Source: Octopus sinensis
Taxonomy: Eukaryota
Length of the DNA: 64,000 nt
NCBI RefSeq assembly: GCF_006345805.1
Contig: NC_043001.1
Coordinates: 21,638,001-21,702,000 of the forward strand
Reading direction: 5' to 3'
The position numbers were made by a program, and so were the translations under genes. The notes beneath the pieces were generated by a model. It was not told where the DNA came from, did no database searches, and was given only the letters and a program-made list of their open reading frames with translations. Positions 1-44,755 of this stretch are shown here, piece after piece; within the stretch, counting starts at the first letter, position 1; every line of letters starts with the position of its first letter.

Positions 1-298
1 AAAGGGAGAATTGGAGGTGAAGGATATAAGAATGAGCGATGAATTCGTGGAAAATATGGATGAGTATTTCGGAGTAAGAATGGATATGGAATTTATTCGT
101 ATTGGCAAGAACATTCAAGTGACGATGAAAAACAAAGGACAGGTAAGTGATGCTAACGGATGGGGCCGTTGGTATCGCTTTCATACTATCATTTTCTTTC
201 ACTTAACAATTCATTTTTCATAAATTTTAATTATAATGTTCTATGTCCCCATGTGTTTGGTGTCGCCCTCTGTGTCGCCCCTAGTGGGTAATAAAGAA
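1..298 (+). mobile_element. 3' part of an ORF1/Gag-only retroelement unit (array continues beyond the window start)
   Basis: Near-identical to ~3710-4006; ends in tail ...cccctagtgggtaataaagaa, followed by the 20-bp spacer at 299-318. Confidence 0.85.
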
Positions 299-318
299 TC
301 ACCACATCTGAACCATTT

Positions 319-1280
319 GGCTGCTGTGATCAGCGGCCACGAGAAGGAAGTGGATATTCTCCATGCCTCGGTTAAGTCCGAGGGCTGGAGAGGCGTAACA
401 GTGGAGCTGAACGTACAGGCAGAGAACGAGGTACTGGTGGACCTGGCGGAAAGCATCAGATTGGGAGACGTGATCATGAGAGTGTGGGTGGAGGGCAGAG
501 CTCCACGTTGTTACAAGTGTGGCCTGAGGGGTCACATAAGAGCCTTCTGCCCTCCCCCAGGGAAAGAAATGGATTCCGAACCACACAGAGAGAAGCAGAA
601 ACCAGAAGAGAAGGAGACAGTAGAAGAGGAAGAAAATACACAGAAATGGAAGGAAGCTGGAAATAAGAGGAAGAGAAGAATACGAGGAAAAGAAAATAAC
701 ATGGAACACCAATCTACCCCAAAACCACCCACACCCTCTGAGTCCCACCCTATTCCTGCAGACAGTGAACCCACCCGCTCCCCCCCAACAAGAAAACAAA
801 GGAAAAAAAATAATACACACAGACAAGAGATTGAATTCGATATCAGGCCGTACATTTGTACTATGACTGAACAGAAAGAAGTTAAAAGTCTAATGGAAGA
901 GTATAAATGGTATGAAGTTGGTGAGACTAGGTATGCTGTGATTGAAAAGAAGAACATAGGTGAGTTTATGGTGAGGTGTGAAAGGGAGAATTGGGAGGTG
1001 AAGGATATAAGAATGAGCGATGAATTCGTGGAAAATATGGATGAGTATTTCGGAGTAAGAATGGATATGGAATTTATTCGTATTGGCAAAGAACATTCAA
1101 GTGACGATGAAAAACAAAGGACAGGTAAGTGATGCTAACGGATGGGGCCGTTGTATCGCTTTCATACTATCATTTTCTTTCACTTAACAATTCATTTTTC
1201 ATAAATTTTAATTATAATGTTCTATGTCCCCATGTGTTTTGGTGTCGCCCTCTGTGTCGCCCCTAGTGGGTAATAAAGAA
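319..1280 (+). mobile_element. 5'-truncated ORF1/Gag-only unit with CCHC knuckle and intact C-terminus
   Basis: ORF 236..1132 contains CYKCGLRGHIRAFC and runs to ...QRTGK*. The unit starts at the position equivalent to ~3064 of the long copy; period 982 bp. Confidence 0.85.
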
Positions 1281-1300
1281 TCACCACATCTGAACCATTT

Positions 1301-2265
1301 GGCTGCTGTGATCAGCGGCCACGAGGAGGAAGTGGATATTCTCCATGCCTCGGTTAAGTCCGAGGGCTGGAGAGGCGTAACAGTGGAGCTGAACGTACAG
1401 GCAGAGAACGAGGTACTGGTGGACCTGGCGGAAAGCATCAGATTGGAGACGTGATCATGAGAGTGTGGGTGGAGGGCAGAGCTCCACGTTGTTACAAGTG
1501 TGGCCTGAGGGGTCACATAAGAGCCTTCTGCCCTCCCCCAGGGAAAGAAATGGATTCCGAACCACACAGAGAGAAGCAGAAACCAGAAGAGAAGGAGACA
1601 GTAGAAGAGGAAGAAAATACACAGAAATGGAAGAAGCTGGAAATAAGAGGAAGAGAAGAATACGAGGAAAAGAAAATAACATGGAACACCAATCTACCCC
1701 AAAACCACCCACACCCTCTGAGTCCCACCCTATTCCTGCAGACAGTGAACCCACCCGCTCCCCCCCCCCCCAACAAGAAAACAAAAGAAAAAAAATAATA
1801 CACACACACAAGAGATTGAATTCGATATCAGGCCGTACATTTGTACTATGACTGAACAGAAGAAGTTAAAAGTCTAATGGAAGAGTATAAATGGTATGAA
1901 GTTGGTGAGACTAGGTATGCTGTGATTGAAAAGAAGAACATAGATGAGTTTATGGTGAGGTGTGAAAGGGAGAATTGGGAGGTGAAGGATATAAGAATGA
2001 GCGATGAATTCGTGGAAAATATGGATGAGTATTTCGGAGTAAGAATGGATATGGAATTTATTCGTATTGGCAAAGAACATTCAAGTGACGATGAAAAACA
2101 AAGGACAGGTAAGTGATGCTAACGGATGGGGCCGTTGGTATCGCTTTCATACTATCATTTTCTTTCACTTAACAATTCATTTTTCATAAATTTTAATTAT
2201 AATGTTCTATGTCCCCATGTGTTTTGGTGTCCCCCTCTGTGTCGCCCCTAGTGGGTAATAAAGAA
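1301..2265 (+). mobile_element. Second 5'-truncated ORF1/Gag-only unit (frameshifted)
   Basis: Same truncation point (ggctgctgtgatc) as the unit at 319; several 1-nt indels split the ORF; period 985 bp. Confidence 0.85.
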
Positions 2266-2285
2266 TCACCAAATCTGAACCATTT

Positions 2286-4006
2286 GGTCGGTCGTGTTTT
2301 TTTACGCTCGTAAAATTCGGCAAAAAAGAACAAAAAGCGTTGTTGTTGTTGTGGAAATTCTGAACGGCGTTGATGCGGTTTCGCGTTTCGCTCGTTCTGC
2401 GCGCTACACTTTTTTCTGTTTTGGCGGCCGTTTTCGGTCTGTCAGACAGAAGGAAATGGACTATGAGTCTCTAACAGACTTGTCCACGACAGATGAGGAA
2501 CTGGAACAGGCAATTACAATGAAGCTGATGGAAGAAAAGGCTGGAGTTTTCGAGTCTTTATCAGACTTGTCTACGTCTGAGAAGGAGCTAGAAATGGCAG
2601 CGAGGAAATTGGACGAGAAGCTGGGTTATACCTATGCCGGTGTAACCAAGAAGGCGGAAGAGAAAGGGGTCGACTTGGCCAAGCTACCAAGTTACCAGAA
2701 ATACATGAAAAAGGAAAGCGGTGAGGTGGAACTAGCACCGACACCCGGGAGAAAAGAATGGTATGATAAGAGGACCATTATTTACAGGGTGTTCGCAAAC
2801 GAAAGGAAGAGGGTAGAAGTTGTAACCATGGAGTGGATAGAGGAAGCCCTGAGAAGATCGGAGGAGGAAATTAATTTTCTGACTCGAGGATCCAAGTATG
2901 GTACCGTAGTTGTGCGTTTTAAAAGTGAGACTGCAGCGAGGAAGATGGCGGCGAAGGCGGTGAAGTCAGAAAAGGTAACACTTCTACCTACGTATTTGAA
3001 TAGAAGGATTACACGTGTGAGGATGGAGGGAGTGCCCCCAAACGTGGAGGCAGAGTGGATTGTGGCGGCTGTGATCAGCGGCCACGAGGAGGAAGTGGAT
3101 ATTCTCCATGCCTCGGTTAAGTCCGAGGGCTGGAGAGGCGTAACAGTGGAGCTGAACGTGCAGGCGGAGAACGAGGTACTGGTGGACCTGGCGGAAAGCA
3201 TCAGATTGGGAGACGTGATCATGAGAGTGTGGGTGGAGGGCAGAGCTCCACGTTGTTACAAGTGTGGCCTGAGGGGTCACATAAGAGCCTTCTGCCCTCC
3301 CCCAGGGAAAGAAATGGATTCCGAACCACACAGAGAGAAGGAGACAGTAGAAGTGGAAGAGAATACACAGAAATGGAAGGAAGTTGGAAATAAGAGGAAG
3401 AGAAGAATACGAGGAAAAGAAAATAACATGGAACACCAATCTACCCCAAAACCACCCACACCCTCTGAGTCCCACCCTATCCCTGCAAACAGTGAACCCA
3501 CCCGCTCCCCCCCAACAAGAAAACAAAAGAAAAAAAATAATACACACACACAAGAGATTGAATTCGATATCAGGCCGTACATTTGTACTATGACTGAACA
3601 GAAGAAGTTAAAAGTCTAATGGAGAGTATAAATGGTATGAAGTTGGTGAGACTAGGTATGCTGTGATTGGAAAGAAGAACATAGATGAGTTTATGGTGAG
3701 GTGTGAAAGGGAGAATTGGGAGGTGAAAGATATAAGAATGAACGATGAATTCGTGGAAAATATGGATGAGTATTTCGGAGTAAGAATGGATATGGAATTT
3801 ATTCGTATTGGCAAAGAACATTCAAGTGACGATGAAAAACAAAGGACAGGTAAGTGATGCTGACGGATGGGGCCGTTGGTATCGCTTTCATATTATCATT
3901 TTCTTTCACTTAACAATTCATTTTTCATAAATTTTAATTATAATGTTCTATGTCCCCATGTCTTTTGGTGTCCCCATCTGTGTCGCCCCTAGTGGGTAAT
4001 AAAGAA
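2286..4006 (+). mobile_element. Apparently full-length (1721 bp) ORF1-only non-autonomous non-LTR element (HAL1/HeT-A-like architecture)
   Basis: Flanked by 20-bp direct repeats tcaccaaatctgaaccattt (2266-2285) and tcaccaaatatgaaccattt (4007-4026). ~170-bp 5'UTR, one ORF, ~150-bp 3'UTR ending AATAAAGAA; no room for RT or endonuclease. Confidence 0.8.
2456..3857 (+). CDS. ORF1/Gag-like nucleic-acid-binding protein with a single CX2CX4HX4C zinc knuckle; 1-nt frameshifts near 3600-3625
   Basis: ATG at 2456 (MDYESLTDLST...). Duplicated acidic N-terminal motif, knuckle CYKCGLRGHIRAFC, basic KRKRR segment. The C-terminus can be restored from the intact frame in the 319-1280 copy. Confidence 0.75.
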
Positions 4007-4496
4007 TCACCAAATATGAACCATTTTGTTGCACAATACATCTCCATCTTTCCTTTAACTTAAAAATACCCTCTTCCCAGAATTGAGGTGGTTTCATGGC
4101 AAAGAATTCATCAAGGTCTCTTTTTATGTCATCCAAGGAATTGAAATTTTTACCATTAAGACTATTCTGCAGAGACCTGAATTAGTGGAAATCTGAAGGA
4201 GCAATATCTGGTGAATATGGAGGGTGGGATAACATATTCCAGCCGAGCTGCAGCAATTTTTGTCTGGTTCCCAAAGCATCAAGTGCTGAAAATGAACTTT
4301 CTCATCTTCCATGTTAAAGGGTTATAGAATTAACACAGGTTATAGGAACATAAACCTTCTTCCACGAAAAGATAGCTTAAACTGTGCTCTAAATGGAGGT
4401 GTAGTCAAATCCTATTTTATGGACTCAACCATGTTCTAAAATAAGTCGAAATGTAAGCTACCATAAATTGGCACGAACTTTCCGGACATCCCAATA
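4007..4496 (-). mobile_element. Internally deleted mariner transposon, interrupted by the ORF1-element array
   Basis: Minus strand reads MEDEKVHFQHLMLW fused to ...LSHPPYSPDIAPSDF...WEEGIFKLKERWRCIVQQNGSYLV (mariner YSPDLAPxD motif and C-terminus). TIR-like tattgggatgtccggaaagttcgtgc with terminal TA at ~4471-4496. Confidence 0.85.
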
Positions 4497-4996
4497 GTTT
4501 CCCACAAGAGCAATCATTGAGAACTAATGAAGCCAATTTAATCAACTGTAGGGCTTAACTAGTGTTTCATTTAAGCTGGAGTAATATAAGACAAAGCTAA
4601 TGTTGTGGGATTCAGTGTGCGATCGTAAGTGAGTATAACTAAATGTTTCAAGGTTATGTCCGCCGTACGACAGATTATGCCACGCATGCCTTAAATATTA
4701 CCTTTCGTTTTATCGGGGTCGATAAATTAAGTACCAGTGAAACACTGAGGTCGATCTAATCGATTAGTCCCCTCCCCCAAAAGATCAGGCCTTGTTTCTT
4801 AAGTAGAAAGGATTATTAATTTCGCCATTTGCATCTGTTAGAAATCTTCAATAAGATCAGAAGTGCGTCAAATCAAAAATATCTCTCAATTATTTGTACC
4901 ACAGCGTCACTCATTAATAGTAGTAATAATAATAATAATAATAATAATAATGATAATAATAATAATAATAATAATATTAATAATATTAATAATAAT

Positions 4997-5270
4997 AAAA
5001 TGGCAGAAATTCAAAAGATAGTGCTCATGGGAACTGCTTATATCCTACGCAAAATACTTTCTATGTAATCACAAGTTTTAAAACGAACAATTTTCGTAGA
5101 ATTTTTTAGGCATTCACTAGTACAACACTAAGTACAAAACCGAATATATGGCACCCTAGGCATAACACCAACATGAACTTCCAACTTGTTGTCTCTTGAG
5201 GTCTCTGGGTGAGACTTGGAGCCAACTTGTACAAATGTAAAGCAAAAGTCAAACAGAATAATAATAATAG
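4997..5270 (+). mobile_element. 3' end of an R4/Dong-like (RLE) non-LTR retrotransposon in (TAA)n
   Basis: MAEIQKIVLMGTAYILRKILSM* resembles the R4/Dong C-terminus; (AAT)n on both sides fits Dong microsatellite targeting. Confidence 0.7.
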
Positions 5271-5281
5271 ATAATAATAAA

Positions 5282-5552
5282 TGCCCTGATGCAGAACCAG
5301 ACAGTGGCTCTCATGGCTTCTGATCTTAACTGATTAGAAGTGTTATCATGTACATTCTTTTGTCTTGGTATAAAAGATGGGCTACAGCAAATATTCTGCT
5401 CAATACCACAAATTTGCTTGTCAGTTGTTTGACCTTAACCAGTTGAGCATGTCCCTTAGTGGCTGGCGATATGTGCATCTCTGATCTCGAGCAAAAGTCG
5501 TGGGGAAACATCATAGCCATGTGTTGGGAGGGATTTTTTGCGGCTTGAATAA
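5282..5552. repeat. Dispersed non-coding repeat (family E), 5' part
   Basis: Highly similar to 21410-21640; starts right after (AAT)n. Confidence 0.75.
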
Positions 5553-5690
5553 TTTCCGTCTACCAAATCCACTCACAAGGCCCGAGGCTATAGTAGAAGA
5601 CACTTGCCCAAGGTGCCAGACAGTGCGACTGAACCCGGGACCATGTAGTTGGTAAGCAAGCTACTTACCACACAGCCACTCCTGCGCCTA
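5553..5690 (-). mobile_element. SINE family B head fragment
   Basis: Matches the head of 40939-41585 (aggcgcaggagtggctgtgtggtaag...ccttgggcaagtgtctt). Confidence 0.8.
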
Positions 5691-5909
5691 TTATTATTAT
5701 TATTATTATTATTATATTATTATTATTATTATTATTAAAAACGGGCAAAAACGGACAAAATGCTTCACGGCATTTCGTCCGTCTTTACGTTCTGAGTTCA
5801 AATTCCACCGAAGTCGACTCTGCTTTTCATTCTTTCGGGGTCGATATATTAAGTACTAGTTGAATACTGGGGGATCGATGTAACTGACTTAAAGTTAAAG
5901 TTACTTTCT

Positions 5910-6147
5910 TCAGTCATACCGATTCATAAGGGCCAGTCTCCCGGTTTCATGGTGAATATATCCTCCACCTGGACGGGACGCCAGTCCGTCACAGCGTTAC
6001 TCACTTTGGCCAGCTGAGTGGACTGAAGCAACGTCAAATGAAGCTTTTTGCTCAAGAACGCAACGCGTCGCCCGGTCCAGGAATCGAAACTGCAATCTTA
6101 CGATCATGAGTCCAACACCCTAACCACTAAGCCAAGCGCCTTCACAA
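5910..6147 (-). mobile_element. tRNA-derived SINE nested in an older family-A copy
   Basis: Minus strand shows A-box tggcttagtgg and B-box gtttcgattcc; family-A-like sequence lies on both sides (5740-5890, 6148-6210). Confidence 0.65.
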
Positions 6148-6349
6148 TATAATCGATTTACCCACTCCCATAAAATTTCAGACTTGAAAATTTATTAGAA
6201 CGGATTATTATAATGATTAGTCAACAATTTAACCATTGTTTCACTTATCATCTTGTCAATCAGCTAGACTTGTCAAACTCTTTTTGTCGTTATCAATGAC
6301 GTACCTTTTGTATTATTGGTCTGCGCCGCTGGGAATGGTATTGAGAAAA

Positions 6350-6764
6350 GGCGGTGAGCTGGCAGAATCGTTAGCACACCGGGCGAAATGCGTAGCCGTA
6401 TTTCGTCTGCCGCTACGTTCTGAGTTCAAATTCCGCCGAGGTCGACTTTGCCTTTCATCCTTTCGGGGTCGATAAATTAAGTAACAGTTATGCACTGGGG
6501 TCGATGTAATCGACTTAATCCCTTTGTCCGTCCTTGTTTGTCCCCTATGTGTTTAGCCCCTTGTGGGTAGTTAAGAAATAGGTATTTCGTCTGCCGCTAC
6601 GTTCTGAGTTCAAATTCCGCCGAGGTCGACTTTGCCTTTCATCTTTTCGGGGTCGATAAATTAAGTAACAGTTACGCACTGGGGTCGATATAATCGACTT
6701 AATCCGTTTGTCTGTCCTTGTTTGTCCCCTATATGTTTAGCCCCTTGTGGGTAGTAAAGAAACA
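6350..6764 (+). mobile_element. tRNA-SINE family A, dimeric
   Basis: Head agctggcagaatcgttag...gagttcaaattcc, central gcctttcatcctttcggggtcgataaa (resembles the conserved MetaSINE-type core), body repeated from 6581; direct repeat ggtattga at 6337 and 6765. Confidence 0.85.
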
Positions 6765-7106
6765 GGTATTGATGAAATGTTTTTGTTTTGTTATTTTTTG
6801 TTTATTTGTTGTTGTTTTTTTTCCATTGAAGATTTTAAAAGGGGAAATAACACCTGGTTGAAGACTACATACTACATAAAGTTTTCTAAATATTAGTAAC
6901 TACGTCACCACTTTTTTTATCTTGATCCCCCCGCCACTATTCCCTCTGCTACTCTCTAAATTATAGTAGGCTTAACAAGGTATGTATTATTTTCTAAACT
7001 CATTCTGCCACAGTTATAGCAAAAGGGAACAATGTACATATTTTGGTTTCCATTATTGATGTAAATTTGTTAAAAAATGGTTTATCCTTTACGTTTGAAG
7101 TCTATG

Positions 7107-7196
7107 CGTTCACCTGACGAGAACGGCTTCTTTTAAATTGATGTAATGTTTTCATTAATCAATTAAATGAAGCCGCTTGAAACGGCCGTAATGAAA
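7107..7196 (+). ncRNA. Type I hammerhead ribozyme motif (Penelope-like)
   Basis: CTGACGA 7114-7120; stem II gaacggcttc/gaagccgctt; GAAAC 7179-7183; palindromic stem III acggccgt; GTA 7188-7190; imperfect stem I ttcac/atgaa. Confidence 0.6.
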
Positions 7197-7491
7197 TGAC
7201 ACCTGTACATCTTTGTTGCTTATTTATATTCTGTTCACCTAACTTGGAAATTGCCCTTCGGAAATACTATAGAAAGTACCTTTATAAAAAATACATATCT
7301 GAATTACCAAGAACGGACATATTCACTTAGCTGGGTTGCGTTGTCTACACATACGACAGGAATATTGGGAACAAATACCCCTACACGGAGTCTTGATATT
7401 CAATATTCAAATAATATTGTTGGGGTGTGCAGATTATACCGAACTAGTAAGGTGCCTCAATATAAGTACCTAATTCAACTGAATCTTAATT

Positions 7492-7522
<31 letters not shown>

Positions 7523-7575
7523 AACAAACAAACAAACAAACAAACAAACAAACACTCACACATACACATACATAT

Positions 7576-7744
7576 TAGCCACTACACACATTTTTTTCTC
7601 TTGTTTTTTCTGTGTCCCTTTCTGTAGAAGAGCGTAGGCTCGAAACGTAAAAGACTTTTTCTATTCCTGAGCGTTATACTAATACATCTGTTTGTTTTGT
7701 ACACCACCTGTCTTCGTCTTATGTTTTTTTTCGTAAACTCTCCC

Positions 7745-7748
<4 letters not shown>
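7576..7748 (+). mobile_element. Short dispersed element carrying a variant hammerhead (CTGTAGA core)
   Basis: cttt-CTGTAGA-a-gagc(gtag)gctc-GAAAC-GTA-aaag; homologous copies at 47112-47296 (+) and ~62040-62215 (-). Confidence 0.65.
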
Positions 7749-7798
<50 letters not shown>

Positions 7799-7847
7799 TA
7801 TATTATATGACCGAACACATGCGCTATTTCTCTTCTCCAAGTAAGTT

Positions 7848-7906
<59 letters not shown>

Positions 7907-8783
7907 AGTACTACGGTTGATTCGTTCGAGTAAAATTCTTGCAGGCGCTGCCCCACCATGGCCACAGTCTGATGACTGGAAAAGTAAAAGATAATTAGAT
8001 AGATAGATAGATAGATAGATTTACGACGGCATCTAAACAGTTTCTGTGTATCAGATTCACTCGCCAAGTATTGATCAATCCGTGGTTATAGTAGAGGACA
8101 TTTACCCAAGGTGATGCACTGTGGGACAGAACCCGAAACCATATGGTTGCAAAGTGAGCTTTTTCACCAAGTAGGTGTATCGTTCTATATTTTTCCGTCC
8201 AATGTAAATAATGTACAACTAGGTGCATATTTTACTCCAGATATCGACTCCAAAAAATCTGAACCTACGTTTTCTAAGCCTCTAATTGTACAGTTACAAT
8301 AGAGAAATACTGCCTACGAATCTTTGCTTTAATTACTTCGCTTTTGTCACTGTCAGATATTTTAAGAATGACAACCTCGGAAACGCAAGTAAATTACACT
8401 AAGTTAACCGATAACAATATAGAAAATTGAAGCTAGAATCGTATGAAATGCATCTCGCTATCCACGACCTAATATTTTGAATCACTTTCAATGTGATACA
8501 AGAGCAGAATTTTTTTTTCCGGGCACTAGTTTCTTTATTTTAAAAATCCATCAAAGCTTTGTAAAAAAAGAGGCCTTTTTCCTTCCTATCGTAATAGCAC
8601 AAGACTCAACAACCTTAATAACCTTAATAAATTCAACCATCTTAATAAACGTATTATTTCTTGATTTTGAAAAATTACATTAACGAAACGGTGATGTCTA
8701 AGTATTGCGTTCTTACACAGAACGCCGGGCAAAATGCCCAGCCGCATTTCGTCGGTCTTTACATTCTGAGTTCAAATTCCACC

Positions 8784-29795: not shown

Positions 29796-30005
29796 TATTT
29801 CTTTATTGCCCACAAGGGGCTACACACAGAGGGGACAAACAAGGACAGACAAAGGGATTATGTCGATTACATCGACCCCAGTGCGTAACTGGTACTTAAT
29901 TTATCGACCCCGAAAGGATGAAAGACAAAGTTGACCTCGGTGGAATTTGAACTCAGAACGTAAAGACACAAAATACCACTAAGCATCTCGCCCACCTCGC
30001 CGCCT
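29796..30005 (-). mobile_element. SINE family A
   Basis: Matches the family consensus; attaagtat repeated in both flanks. Confidence 0.8.
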
Positions 30006-30573: not shown

Positions 30574-31627
30574 AATGGCCCTCTCAGACATGCCCTCAGC
30601 CACGCAGAGAGCCACGATCACAAGTTATGCAGATGATACAAAAGTTTCACAGGCAATACAGAACCTGAGGACAATAAACGCCTGCAATGTGAGCTGGACA
30701 AAATATACAAGTGGGCTGAAAAGAATAGCATGCAGTTCAATGCTGAAAAGTTTCAAGCTTTATACTATCAGCATGCAAAACTAAATGCAATACCCAATGA
30801 ATACACTGGACCCGGAGGAATTGCAATCCCAGAGGCACAATCAGTGCGTGACCTGGGTATTTACATGAGTGATGACGCAACCTTTCGTGTACATGTTGCT
30901 AAATTGGCAATGAAATGTAGACGACTGGCCGGATGGATTCTCAGAACCTTTAGAACAAGAGAACAAGAAACCATGATGGTCCTCTGGAGGACACTTGTCC
31001 TAAGCCACTTTGACTATTGCTCTCAGCTATGGTCACCATCCAATGTCAAGTTGATCACAGAACTTGAGGCGATCCAACGTAGCTACACGAAGAAGATAGC
31101 CTCTATGCAGAATATAAGCTACTGGGAAAGACTCAAGAGATTAAAACTCTATTCCTTGGAGCGTAGGCGAGAAAGATATGCTATAATATACATCTGGAAG
31201 ATCCTGGAGGGACTTGTCCCAAACTTTGGCATCGAGAGTTACACAAATGCCAGAACTGGGCGCCACTGCGTGGTGCCTAGGACTCCAAATTTGCCATCAA
31301 GATGTAGGACAGATACTGTGATAGCCTGGGCTTCCGAGGCCCACAGCTCTTCAATATCCTCCGAAGAACCTAAGGGACCTGCATGGGGTGGATGCAGATG
31401 TCTTTTAAATGAAACTGGATCTCTTCTTGTCAGGTATCCCAGATGAACCAACTTCACGGCAGGAGGTGCAGATGAGGACAGCTGCATCGAACTCTCTCAT
31501 GCACCAAATGGCAGTTGCTAAAAAGCATTCGTGAAGTAAAACCATGTAGCAACACCAAATGGCGGTGCCCCAGCATGGCCACAGCTCATGAGCTGAAACT
31601 AGAATCAATCAATCAATCAATCAATCA
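30574..31627 (+). mobile_element. 5'-truncated CR1/L2-group LINE (RT C-terminal half), frameshifted
   Basis: SYADDTKV...MQFNAEK...VRDLGI...HFDYCSQLWSP...YWERLKRLKLYSLERRRER; (AATC)n tail. Confidence 0.9.
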
Positions 31628-35711: not shown

Positions 35712-37796
35712 AGATGTATGTGTGTGAGGGTGTATATATGTGTATATGCACATGTACGTAAGCATATGGATATGAAAGTAAACAGATCAACATACAGACG
35801 GATAGGTACATAGGTTATGAGAACAGACAAGCACACATACGCAAATGGAAACTGAAACACATGACCATATATACATACACTTTACTTCACACAAGGACAC
35901 ATATGGAGATACACGTCCACACATATGGAGATGCACATACATGCATACAAACACGGTACATAGTTGCATACACACAAACATGGACACGCAAACACTTGAA
36001 TATGCAGAATACATACATACATATGCACACACACACACACATACATACACACACATGCGTACGTACATACATACATACATACATACATACATACATACAT
36101 ACACACATACATACATACATACATACATACATACATACATACACACATACATACATACATACATACATACATGTATAGGCACACACACACACACACTGAT
36201 CACACACATGCACAAAAACAAACAAAAATAATGCAGTGTGAATAACGGACAGAGTCAAAACTATTGAAAAGGTTGCAAGACGCAACGAAAATTTTATATA
36301 AGCACATACATACATACATACATACATACACACACATACATACATACATACATACATACAAACATACATACATACATACAAACATACATACATACATACA
36401 TACATACATACATACATACATACATACATACATACATACATACATACATACATACATACATACATAATTGTAATATAAATTTATATTCAACGGTATTACA
36501 TATATTAAGTACTCCGAGTTAGGATCACATAACACGTTTCCATACACTGTCTTGTATATAACAAGAGGCCTTTTCACACCGTGTGTTATCCAGATAATAA
36601 TTGTAGAAAGCTTTTCATAGGGAAAATATGTTACCTAAAGTACACGATGAAAAATATACTAACGCCATCCAACGAGTAATACACGAGAATAATGCCGGAG
36701 GAGAATTAAAGATTTTTACATATGTTATAGAATACATAATTCTTGAGACTGCACGGTTAAGTACAGACATCGACCCCACCAGCATAAAAGTCAAGAAGGC
36801 TCAAAGCTTTTATCAACGATCAAGGACCTAACTAGTTTTCAGTCGGACTTCTTGGACAGGATGTCAAACTTCAGATTTCGTAAATTCATCTCATCCTTTC
36901 GAGAATAGACTCAGATCTCACATTTTTTTCCTAGTCCCTGGGATTCAAGGCTGGTTACACAGTCTCCGTGGTGAATAAGTGACTAAGATCACAACTCTAA
37001 TCGTAACCCCAAACAGGACGCTGGTCCGTTTAAGGGTTCAAGACCATCGACCCCCGAAAGGATGAAAAGCAAAGACGATCTCGGCAGGATTTGAACACTG
37101 AGTATTAAAAAACCTGTAAGAAATTCCACTAAGCATTTTGTCCAACGTGCTAACGATTCTGCCAGCTCACCGCCTTAGATTTAACATTAATAAACTAGAA
37201 AATGATATCCGGATAGACCCTACTATTTTCTGACAAAACTAAGAATTTGTATGAGGTAGATAATACTTGATACAAACTGCTGCGAAATCAGAGTGACAGA
37301 AGATCAAATCCACAGGCAAGTGACAATATGTACAAGGAAGCTAGAGAGATATAACAGTAAAGTTAGATAAAGGCGGTAGGATAGAGACGGTGGTTAGGTA
37401 CAATGACCTCATCACAATCAAGTTACCATACAGCTAACTTCACTTCGAATCCTAAACGAGGTCGATAAAGTTGCTAAATCGGTGAGTGATAAGGTAAAAC
37501 CAGCAAACATACTCGTCTAATACATATATATATATATATATATATATATTCACGCTAATCGATTTTTTAACTTTATTGGGTTCTCATCACTTGATCAATC
37601 CCAGAGAAATAAATAGCCTGTCTCTTTATATACACAACGAATCCAATAGCTTTAGAGAACTGGGGCTACTAATTTGCATTCTACGAGTATTTTATATCAC
37701 CGGCCTATATCATAAACACACACACACACACCGCATACATACATACATACATACATACATACATACATACATACATACATACATACGTACATACAT

Positions 37797-38210
37797 ACCT
37801 GTTTCTTTATTACCCACATGGGGTTAAACATAGAGGAGACAAACAAGGACAGACAAACAGATTAAGTCGATTACATCGACCCCAGTGCGTAACTGGTACT
37901 TATTTAATCGATCCCGAAAGGATGAAAGGCAAAGTCGACCTCGGCGGAATTTGAACTCAGAACGTAACGGCAGACGAAATACCTATTTCTTTATTACCCA
38001 CAAGGGGCTACAACATAGAGGGACAAACAAGGACAGACAAACGGATTAATCGATTATCGTCCCCAGTGCGTACTGGTACTTAGTTAATCGACCCCGAAGG
38101 ATGAAAGGCAAAGTCGACCTCGGCGAAATTTGAACTCAGAACGTAACGGCAGACGAAATACCGCAAAGCATTTCGACCGGCGTGCTAACGTTTCTGCCAG
38201 CTCGCCGCCT
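37797..38210 (-). mobile_element. SINE family A, dimeric
   Basis: Same tail|ggtatttcgtctg junction at ~37983. Confidence 0.85.
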
Positions 38211-44329: not shown

Positions 44330-44502
44330 TGCAAAATAACCTGCAATAAGAAAACTGCACAAGAATTTGTACCGCATTTAGCTAAAACAATCGAGGGTTC
44401 TAATTTCTTTAAAACAAATATTTAATGCTGATGAAACCACCTATTTTGGAAGAAAGTGTCGAAGAGAAGATTTTATATTTCAAAGAATTGAAGAAAGAAA
44501 AA
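44330..44502 (+). mobile_element. pogo/Tigger transposase remnant
   Basis: AQEFVPHLAKTIE...IFNADET.LFWKK..KR.FYISKE across frameshifts. Confidence 0.7.
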
Positions 44503-44523
44503 AGGATCAGTTGATTTAAAATA

Positions 44524-44755
44524 TATTTCTTTATTGCCCACAAGGGGCTAAACATAGAGGGGACAAACACAGACAGACAAAGGGATTAAGTCAACTACAT
44601 CGACCCCAGTGCGCAACTGGTACTTTATTTATCGACCCCGAAAGGATGAAAGGCAAAGTCGACCTCGGCGGTGTTTGAACACAGAACGTAACGACAGACG
44701 AAATACTGCTGAGCATTTCGCCCGGCGTGCTAACGCTTCTGCCAGCTCGCCGCCT
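44524..44755 (-). mobile_element. SINE family A monomer
   Basis: 16-bp TSD cagttgatttaaaata on both sides. Confidence 0.9.

Follow-up and report, generated by a model that had tools for sequence, protein, structure and literature searches.

An ORF1-only, probably partner-copied LINE family in Octopus sinensis and its mixed arrays at recurring target sites

The window analysed here is a stretch of 64,000 nucleotides from Octopus sinensis (assembly GCF_006345805.1, contig NC_043001.1, positions 21,638,001 to 21,702,000, forward strand). Near its start lies a unit related to long interspersed nuclear elements (LINEs) that encodes a single protein, ORF1, and no reverse transcriptase (RT). A preliminary description had proposed an independent ORF1-only retroelement at this place, ending in AATAAAGAA and bounded by 20-bp direct repeats, with an open reading frame (ORF) of ~465 codons, one CCHC zinc knuckle, a 3' untranslated region (3'UTR) of ~150 bp, and neither ORF2 nor long terminal repeats (LTRs). 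Most of this anatomy was recovered as claimed: the unit and its terminal motif are present, the single knuckle could be located, the 3'UTR, between the family stop codon (3855-3857) and the unit end, measures 149 bp, and the unit contains neither an ORF2 nor LTRs, its only repeats being the 20-nt junction repeats (Table 1).

The direct repeats proved to be of a different nature. The unit is the last in a head-to-tail array whose six members stand in the order short, short, full, short, short, full, and which begins ~3.4 kb upstream of the window start (10 kb before the window were examined). Near-identical 20-mers, with one mismatch, do flank the unit at 2266-2285 and 4007-4026, and the same 20-mer occurs at 299, 1281, 2266 and 4007. 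Since another unit precedes this one, the 5' 20-mer marks an array junction and not a host boundary.

The reading frame of the window copy is likewise to be distinguished from that of its family. As printed, it runs for 387 codons (2456-3619), and a frame of ~467 codons requires reading through two single-base frameshifts. Open copies of the same subfamily encode proteins of 467-473 aa; both frameshift positions show an additional base in contigs from all four sequencing runs examined, and the frame stays open over 420 aa or more in 43 of 136 full-length units. The frame of the family is therefore open, and the length claimed earlier holds for it rather than for the window copy, whose broken frame may reflect either mutation or assembly error. 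A Pfam scan of the window ORF gave no family above cut-off, the zf-CCHC match (E 0.063) falling under it, and an Rfam scan of window positions 1-8000 gave no match at gathering level.

Table 1. Coordinates of the ORF1-only unit, its parts and its neighbours in the window.
Feature	Position	Strand	Remarks
3' end of preceding full-length unit	1..298	+	whole unit is G000:C5:21636580-21638298
Short unit	299..1280	+	same junction as the next short unit: leader joined to unit position ~775
Short unit	1281..2265	+	leader joined to unit position ~775, intact from there to tail
Junction	2266..2285	+	tail bases of preceding unit plus inherited 5' leader resembling mariner target site
Full-length ORF1-only unit	2286..4006	+	sixth (last) of six in head-to-tail array
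5' untranslated region	2286..2455	+	putative internal promoter
ORF1	2456..3857	+	two 1-bp frameshifts, near 3601 and 3622; printed stop 3617-3619
Two predicted RRM domains	2756..3250	+	AlphaFold2 model, Foldseek and VIA-align matches
Single CCHC zinc knuckle	3254..3295	+	four ligands invariant in 28 aligned cores; Pfam match below cut-off
GTAAGT motif	3850..3855	+	splice-donor-like; matched in 144 of 149 unit 3'UTRs
Predicted 15-bp RNA hairpin at 3'UTR start	3852..3887	+	97.6% of cells paired, 28 variants
3' terminal segment	3960..4006	+	small predicted stem-loop, AATAAA at 3998-4003, without poly(A)
Right part of mariner-derived host element	4009..4496	+	target site 4009-4026; right inverted repeat ~4465-4494, then TA
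SINE-like repeat, two head-to-tail copies	6352..6760	+	same 3' terminal motif as unit

Copies of the unit are numerous and consistently free of ORF2. A DNA search, with 12 of 649 candidates scored, gave 43 matches, 24 of them near full length, and a protein search (150 of 14,322 candidates) gave 150 matches at 67-100% identity. A 24-base motif of the 3'UTR has 368 exact matches, against none for the control; at least one subfamily is missed by this motif, and the copies of the family thus number in the hundreds. We mapped 68 stretches, corresponding to 67 loci with 153 units; L098 and L099 are one locus present on two small, almost letter-identical contigs (haplotype or assembly duplicate), which was counted once in locus tallies while both versions were kept among the 153 units. 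Full-length units measure 1,551-1,747 bp and their 3'UTRs 125-165 bp. No ORF2 match at E 0.001 was obtained in any of the 153 units or in 16 further matches at 67-81% identity, each covered over 2.3 kb. The same 3'UTR follows in 11 of the 12 divergent matches inspected in full, and one of these stops before AATAAA. None of 78 distinct ORF1 cores at 58% identity or more is linked to ORF2; the six ORF2-linked cores share 35-43% identity with the family core over 182 aa. Dispersed copies have a fixed 3' end, 5' truncations and target-site duplications (TSDs) of variable length, and truncated solo copies with a TSD occur, for example at L134 and L103.

The ORF1 protein has features of a maintained RNA-binding protein. 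An AlphaFold2 model of residues 101-282, based on a 28-row alignment, reached a mean pLDDT of 88.7. Foldseek matched this core to tandem-RRM proteins (best E 2e-5), TM-scores being low owing to a different arrangement of the two domains, and the best VIA-align match was to one RRM (Z 8.6, rmsd 2.3, 69 aligned). ORF1 is accordingly described here as a predicted RNA-binding protein with two RRMs and a CCHC knuckle. Between eight representatives, the ratio of nonsynonymous to synonymous substitution rates (dN/dS) of the core is 0.06-0.22 in 26 of 28 pairs (the other two are saturated), with dS reaching saturation at 2-4 in the same pairs. The ratio is 0.13-0.51 for the whole ORF, and 0.26-1.09 for the C-terminal part, which is much freer. 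This comparison among copies, suggested in the preliminary description, shows purifying selection on ORF1 between subfamilies. In a tree of 34 cores (midpoint root, with a long-branch warning), 26 family rows lie on one side of a branch supported at 100/99, the other side being occupied by the six ORF1s linked to ORF2 and by two rows from a second ORF1-only family.

The same results bear on the possibility that the unit goes back to a single internal deletion in a LINE, or is a Gag-only LTR element, and was amplified passively. Such an origin could draw on the broken frame of the window copy and on the zinc knuckle, which is found in Gag as well. It does not account for hundreds of copies, for purifying selection across deep subfamilies, or for a predicted RRM-RRM instead of a capsid fold; moreover, LTRs are absent and ORF1 is homologous to the ORF1 of LINEs with an APE-type endonuclease and RT. 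The ORF2-free units, selection, tree branch and lack of LTRs lead us to reject this explanation, to which we give hardly any weight. The proposal of an independent lineage is borne out by 153 units and 16 divergent matches none of which runs into ORF2, by the separate branch and by selection, and a self-standing ORF1-only lineage is the origin that the copies support.

The second, unrelated ORF1-only family is found in tandem within one of the same arrays (L042:2733-3278 and 4522-5067, minus strand, G000:C10182). Its units are ~1.8 kb long, encode 468 aa with 34% core identity to the first family and have the same tail; the closest stored protein, at 52%, is from Octopus bimaculoides. Judging from this family, ORF2 seems to have been lost at least twice. 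Subfamilies of the first family are mosaic, with cores and C-terminal halves exchanged between lineages in the alignment of open ORFs (e.g. L040, L107, L110), as would be expected from template switching between co-packaged RNAs.

Candidates for the source of RT are close at hand. Full-length APE-RT LINEs lie in or beside many arrays and end in the same stem-loop-AATAAA motif, so that an autonomous LINE sharing the 3' end, sought as a check on the original proposal, does exist. These partners combine a homologous zinc-knuckle ORF1 with an ORF2 comprising APE, RT (RVT_1) and a C-terminal zinc domain (zf-RVT); the RT is of the L1 group, and the closest solved protein to ORF2 is human L1 ORF2p (E 2e-60, vs 2e-24 for R2). 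We take this architecture to mark Tx1 rather than another L1-group clade, and consider the partners likely to be Tx1-type; the RT relatives retrieved for them are unnamed or hypothetical proteins, none a named Tx1 reference. At least three autonomous lineages occur among the loci. The 3' terminal segment is common to these LINEs and to a repeat resembling short interspersed nuclear elements (SINEs), presumably a tRNA-derived octopus SINE, which forms head-to-tail dimers with the same terminal motif at window positions 6352-6760, 29799-29837, ~37780-38025 and ~44500-44547. The same LINE machinery likely moves these repeats too.

The GTAAGT motif near the end of the unit matches the ORF1/ORF2 junction motif of the partners (identical at seven of ten junctions, variant at three), and appears to be a relic of that junction. 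All ten autonomous junctions have AG and then GTAAG or GTAGG immediately ahead of the ORF2 start, so that three autonomous lineages have retained a site resembling a splice donor. An origin of the ORF1-only unit by splicing at GTAAGT was rejected, as the motif is still present; U1 binding there might suppress polyadenylation and hence lead to read-through. Four of the six bases lie inside the predicted stem, which explains their conservation equally well. Taken together with the shared tail, the likely history is one of ORF2 loss from a Tx1-type LINE, with copies likely being made by the RT and endonuclease of related full-length LINEs that share the 3' end. One autonomous-type LINE, L081:5809-7253 (G000:C9), has lost RT through an internal deletion and retains its 3'UTR and TSD-like ends; a deletion of this type could found an ORF1-only family.

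The units are frequently stacked. At 36 of the 67 loci there are 2-10 of them, often of mixed subfamilies, and 31 loci hold one (some stretches cut arrays). Neighbouring units differ by up to 37%, and such mixtures do not arise from local duplication. For 90 of the 121 array units the nearest relative lies at another locus, a count that leans outward, more candidates lying outside. Arrays of this kind might nevertheless be thought to have formed at the DNA level, by unequal exchange, amplification with the host element or assembly duplication following rare single insertions. The array in the window looks just so: it is a near-perfect doubling of a three-unit block, equivalent units differing by 0.1-0.4% from each other and by 1.7-2.5% from the closest relatives elsewhere. 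At L090 ~120 bp of flank are repeated between units, one target group has young flanks, and 31 of the 121 units are indeed closest to another unit of their own array. The satellite-like pattern in which array units most resemble each other is thus seen in the window array and not across the family, where arrays mix divergent subfamilies, full LINEs and the second ORF1-only family, and where target overlaps differ in length at one site. DNA-level duplication is therefore refuted by the mixed arrays as a general mechanism, a role in which we find it improbable, and stands for some arrays, probably including that of the window. Here the high identity between copies, read earlier as a sign of recent activity, reflects local duplication of the three-unit block or assembly duplication; a different subfamily, in which unlinked copies differ by 0.2-0.5%, gives better evidence of recent activity.

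What surrounds the units suggests that insertion sites recur. The host element of the window array is ~570 bp long, with terminal inverted repeats, TA ends and, on the minus strand, a WDVLPHPPYSPDIAP stretch that we take to be a mariner transposase signature; a transposase remnant lies on the minus strand of its right part. The uninterrupted target site of this element occurs 1,823 times (control 0). The 18 bases downstream of the window array are identical to the empty site, and the upstream copy at the host boundary shows two changes from it. This two-change variant has three genomic occurrences, all three at filled junctions, and is absent from nine matched empty sites, which indicates that the 5' copy travels with the element. 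The 20-mer is thus not a plain TSD, its 5' copy being an inherited leader with element-borne changes. At L088, L089 and L098 arrays start in the left end of the mariner-derived element and its right part is absent within the stretch examined, which may be due to target deletion or 5' transduction.

At least four unrelated targets recur, namely the mariner-derived element, the head of the SINE-like repeat and two other repeats, and different copies of a host element are struck at the same base. Flanks at the mariner site differ by 7.6-8.7% and inserts by 2.2-2.4%, a disparity on which we rejected the spread of the insert by mariner transposition; at the SINE-like site alignable flanks differ by ~10% where close inserts differ by 0.4-2%. 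Exact repeats of 8-19 bp between the 5' side and the 3' flank occur at 24 of 60 loci, compared with 1 of 60 in the shifted control, and none of 65 terminal junctions has poly(A). One subfamily sits at several target motifs that are unrelated to one another, and its leaders echo each of them. The tail is also linked to the target: at terminal junctions the 3' flank begins with CCA after 7 of 16 TCA-tailed ends vs 0 of 49 other tails (p 1.6e-5; 2.8e-4 when the three mariner loci count as one). Of 51 TCA-tailed ends in the whole genome, 34 are followed by CCA, by a count made by eye that takes in array junctions. At C3:40.9 Mb a leader-like site holds the 5' junction, and the 3' junction is ~420 bp further on in the host. 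An abundant repeat resembling a decayed ORF1 fragment (975 pattern matches) forms the upstream flanks of L106-L109, L114 and L121, and is a recurrent target for this family and for one autonomous lineage.

We read these observations as a non-autonomous ORF1-only family, likely copied by partner LINEs, that stacks at recurring sites, likely by means of flank tags in its RNA (probability roughly 0.6). The starting point is the set of features carried by the copies themselves: ORF1 only, a shared tail, TSDs of variable length, selection, mixed arrays and target-matching leaders. In a second step the ORF1 protein would coat its own RNA and join it to the particles of the partner, a function that selection would maintain. 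The partner RT would then grip the 3' stem-loop and start at a fixed point just after AATAAAGAA, without poly(A). We hold these three steps to be highly probable, the chaperone role of ORF1 and the use of RT in trans being inferred. Fourth, transcripts would begin slightly upstream of the unit and run slightly past its end, so that each end bears a flank tag. Priming at nicks with matching first bases would be favoured by the 3' tag, and the 5' tag would allow the cDNA end to pair with target DNA of similar sequence. Fifth, the 5' junction of any existing copy would be a good target, and new units of any subfamily, or of a partner LINE, would be added upstream. For the fourth and fifth steps we see only slightly better than an even chance.

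The site preference can also be attributed to endonucleases. The same trans-mobilised family would then owe its sites and arrays solely to the sequence-specific endonucleases of several partners, with leaders as passive leftovers of old TSDs. At least three autonomous lineages are available here, and subfamilies 74-93% identical to the query strike the same base of the SINE-like head. Tx1 is named as one of three groups that hold most target-specific families (PMC4640811), and R1 builds tandem arrays by re-insertion into its own TSD (PMC2718515). Same-base insertion is well accounted for in this way. Not as well explained are the 5' junction copy with element-borne changes that empty sites lack, the tail type that predicts the first target bases, and the single subfamily at several unrelated motifs echoed in its leaders. 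We consider endonuclease specificity unlikely as the sole cause, and flank tags and endonuclease specificity may act together.

Several points weigh against the interpretation in terms of partner copying and RNA flank tags. The system is known here from sequence, its transcript ends, protein and activity being predicted. Loci were chosen by similarity to the query, with ~27 loci of the protein-search list outside the set; the nearest-relative count has the outward lean mentioned above, and the array in the window appears to be a local duplication. At 36 of the 60 loci no exact repeat reaches 8 bp. In one target group (six loci) flanks differ by 0.5-2.7% and inserts by 0.3-1.6%, about equally, which may reflect co-amplification with the host there. 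At least one of the recurrent sites is shared with autonomous copies, and a preference of the endonuclease explains this equally well. Changes in the hairpin are only of the one-sided G-U type, with no compensatory pairs and no excess over shuffles. Finally, the partner ORF1s are so distant (35-43% identity) that the direct parent was not found, and co-assembly with a partner is conjectural.

A further-reaching form of the flank-tag reading is that target choice is heritable through RNA instead of being fixed by the enzyme: each subfamily would bear terminal tags picked up at an earlier insertion site, which steer it towards matching sites in the abundant repeat that happened to be struck first, and new tags would found new specificities. 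We offer this tentatively, as less probable than not. If it is true, an ORF1-only parasite is drawn to the 5' ends of related units and of the LINEs that supply its RT, and dispersed HeT-A-like arrays are built away from telomeres.

Elements of this general type are known. HeT-A, HAL1 and Ag-Sponge are ORF1-present non-autonomous LINEs of the Jockey, L1 and CR1 clades, respectively, and the portion of that survey available to us names no Tx1 or mollusc example (PMC5786205). The octopus family resembles them in having one ORF1 protein and no ORF2, in keeping the 3' end of an autonomous LINE and in forming a long-term lineage; it differs in its likely Tx1-type parent, its RRM-RRM-CCHC ORF1, its lack of poly(A) and its octopod host. 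HAL1 (half-L1) is a mammalian L1-group derivative that encodes only ORF1p and arose more than once (PMC5753468). Repeated origin is paralleled by the second ORF1-only family in octopus, while two RRMs with a knuckle, the fixed AATAAAGAA end and mixed arrays set the octopus family apart. Mammalian L1 ORF1p has a coiled coil-RRM-CTD organization without a knuckle, and HAL1 copies end in poly(A). With HeT-A the octopus family shares the ORF1/Gag-only content and head-to-tail arrays mixed with the RT donor. HeT-A also carries short neighbour-derived sequence tags at its 5' end, as the octopus leaders do; it extends chromosome ends, and its 3'UTR is long. The octopus arrays, in contrast, are interstitial, lie inside other repeats and are flanked by target overlaps, and the 3'UTR is short (125-165 bp). 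Nor is the Jockey-clade origin shared, the octopus partner RT being closest to L1 among solved structures.

In Drosophila R1, too, copies are separated by target-derived sequence through repeated insertion at a regenerated site, the TSD, and R1A transcripts have been inferred to carry upstream target tags that anneal to the target (PMC2718515); double insertion has been described as common (bioRxiv 10.1101/158386). R1 is autonomous and has one fixed 28S target, whereas the octopus family is non-autonomous and has at least four unrelated recurrent targets echoed in leaders. The family thus appears to belong to the ORF1-present non-autonomous LINEs, being neither HAL1 nor HeT-A in the strict sense. 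L1-Tx1 families are listed in O. vulgaris, in a text whose accessible part mentions neither ORF1 nor non-autonomous LINEs (PMC13282606). The literature searched describes no ORF1-only element of Tx1 type or from octopus; Repbase, Dfam or the O. vulgaris repeat library may hold one.

ORF1-only LINEs and stacking into a regenerated site are therefore already known. What seems new is a likely Tx1-type lineage without poly(A) that has several leader/target pairs, pointing to partly RNA-inherited targeting, and this molluscan, likely Tx1-type case would join the few LINE derivatives known to have retained ORF1 alone. The family appears to be old and, in some subfamilies, recently active, building dispersed mixed arrays with inherited leaders; both of these features are absent from the preliminary description. 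Selection on ORF1 held through synonymous saturation, which argues that a unit's own ORF1 protein matters in cis even where RT is supplied in trans. The coexisting leader/target pairs constitute a natural experiment on RNA ends versus endonuclease in LINE target choice, a question that bears on retroelement-based gene insertion.

ORF1-only units will be missed by RT-based classifiers, and open frames of this family are annotated as host proteins in octopus proteomes ('uncharacterized', 'EPM2A-interacting 1-like'). Relatives of the ORF, by protein name, come from Octopus vulgaris, O. sinensis, O. bimaculoides and Argonauta. A word-based protein search with the window ORF gave no match at E 0.001 among 4,866 candidates, and a profile search gave 967 proteins; the closest to the window core among the 153 compared reaches only 54% over 118 aa, so that there is no evidence for this exact clade in other species. 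Two runs guessed to be RNA contain family sequence, and one contig ends in a probable cDNA template-switch adapter; this is too weak to be taken as expression, and contigs do not reveal where transcripts end. Elsewhere in the window, a 269-codon open stretch at 30637-31443 on the plus strand resembles, by eye, the C-terminal RT part of another LINE.
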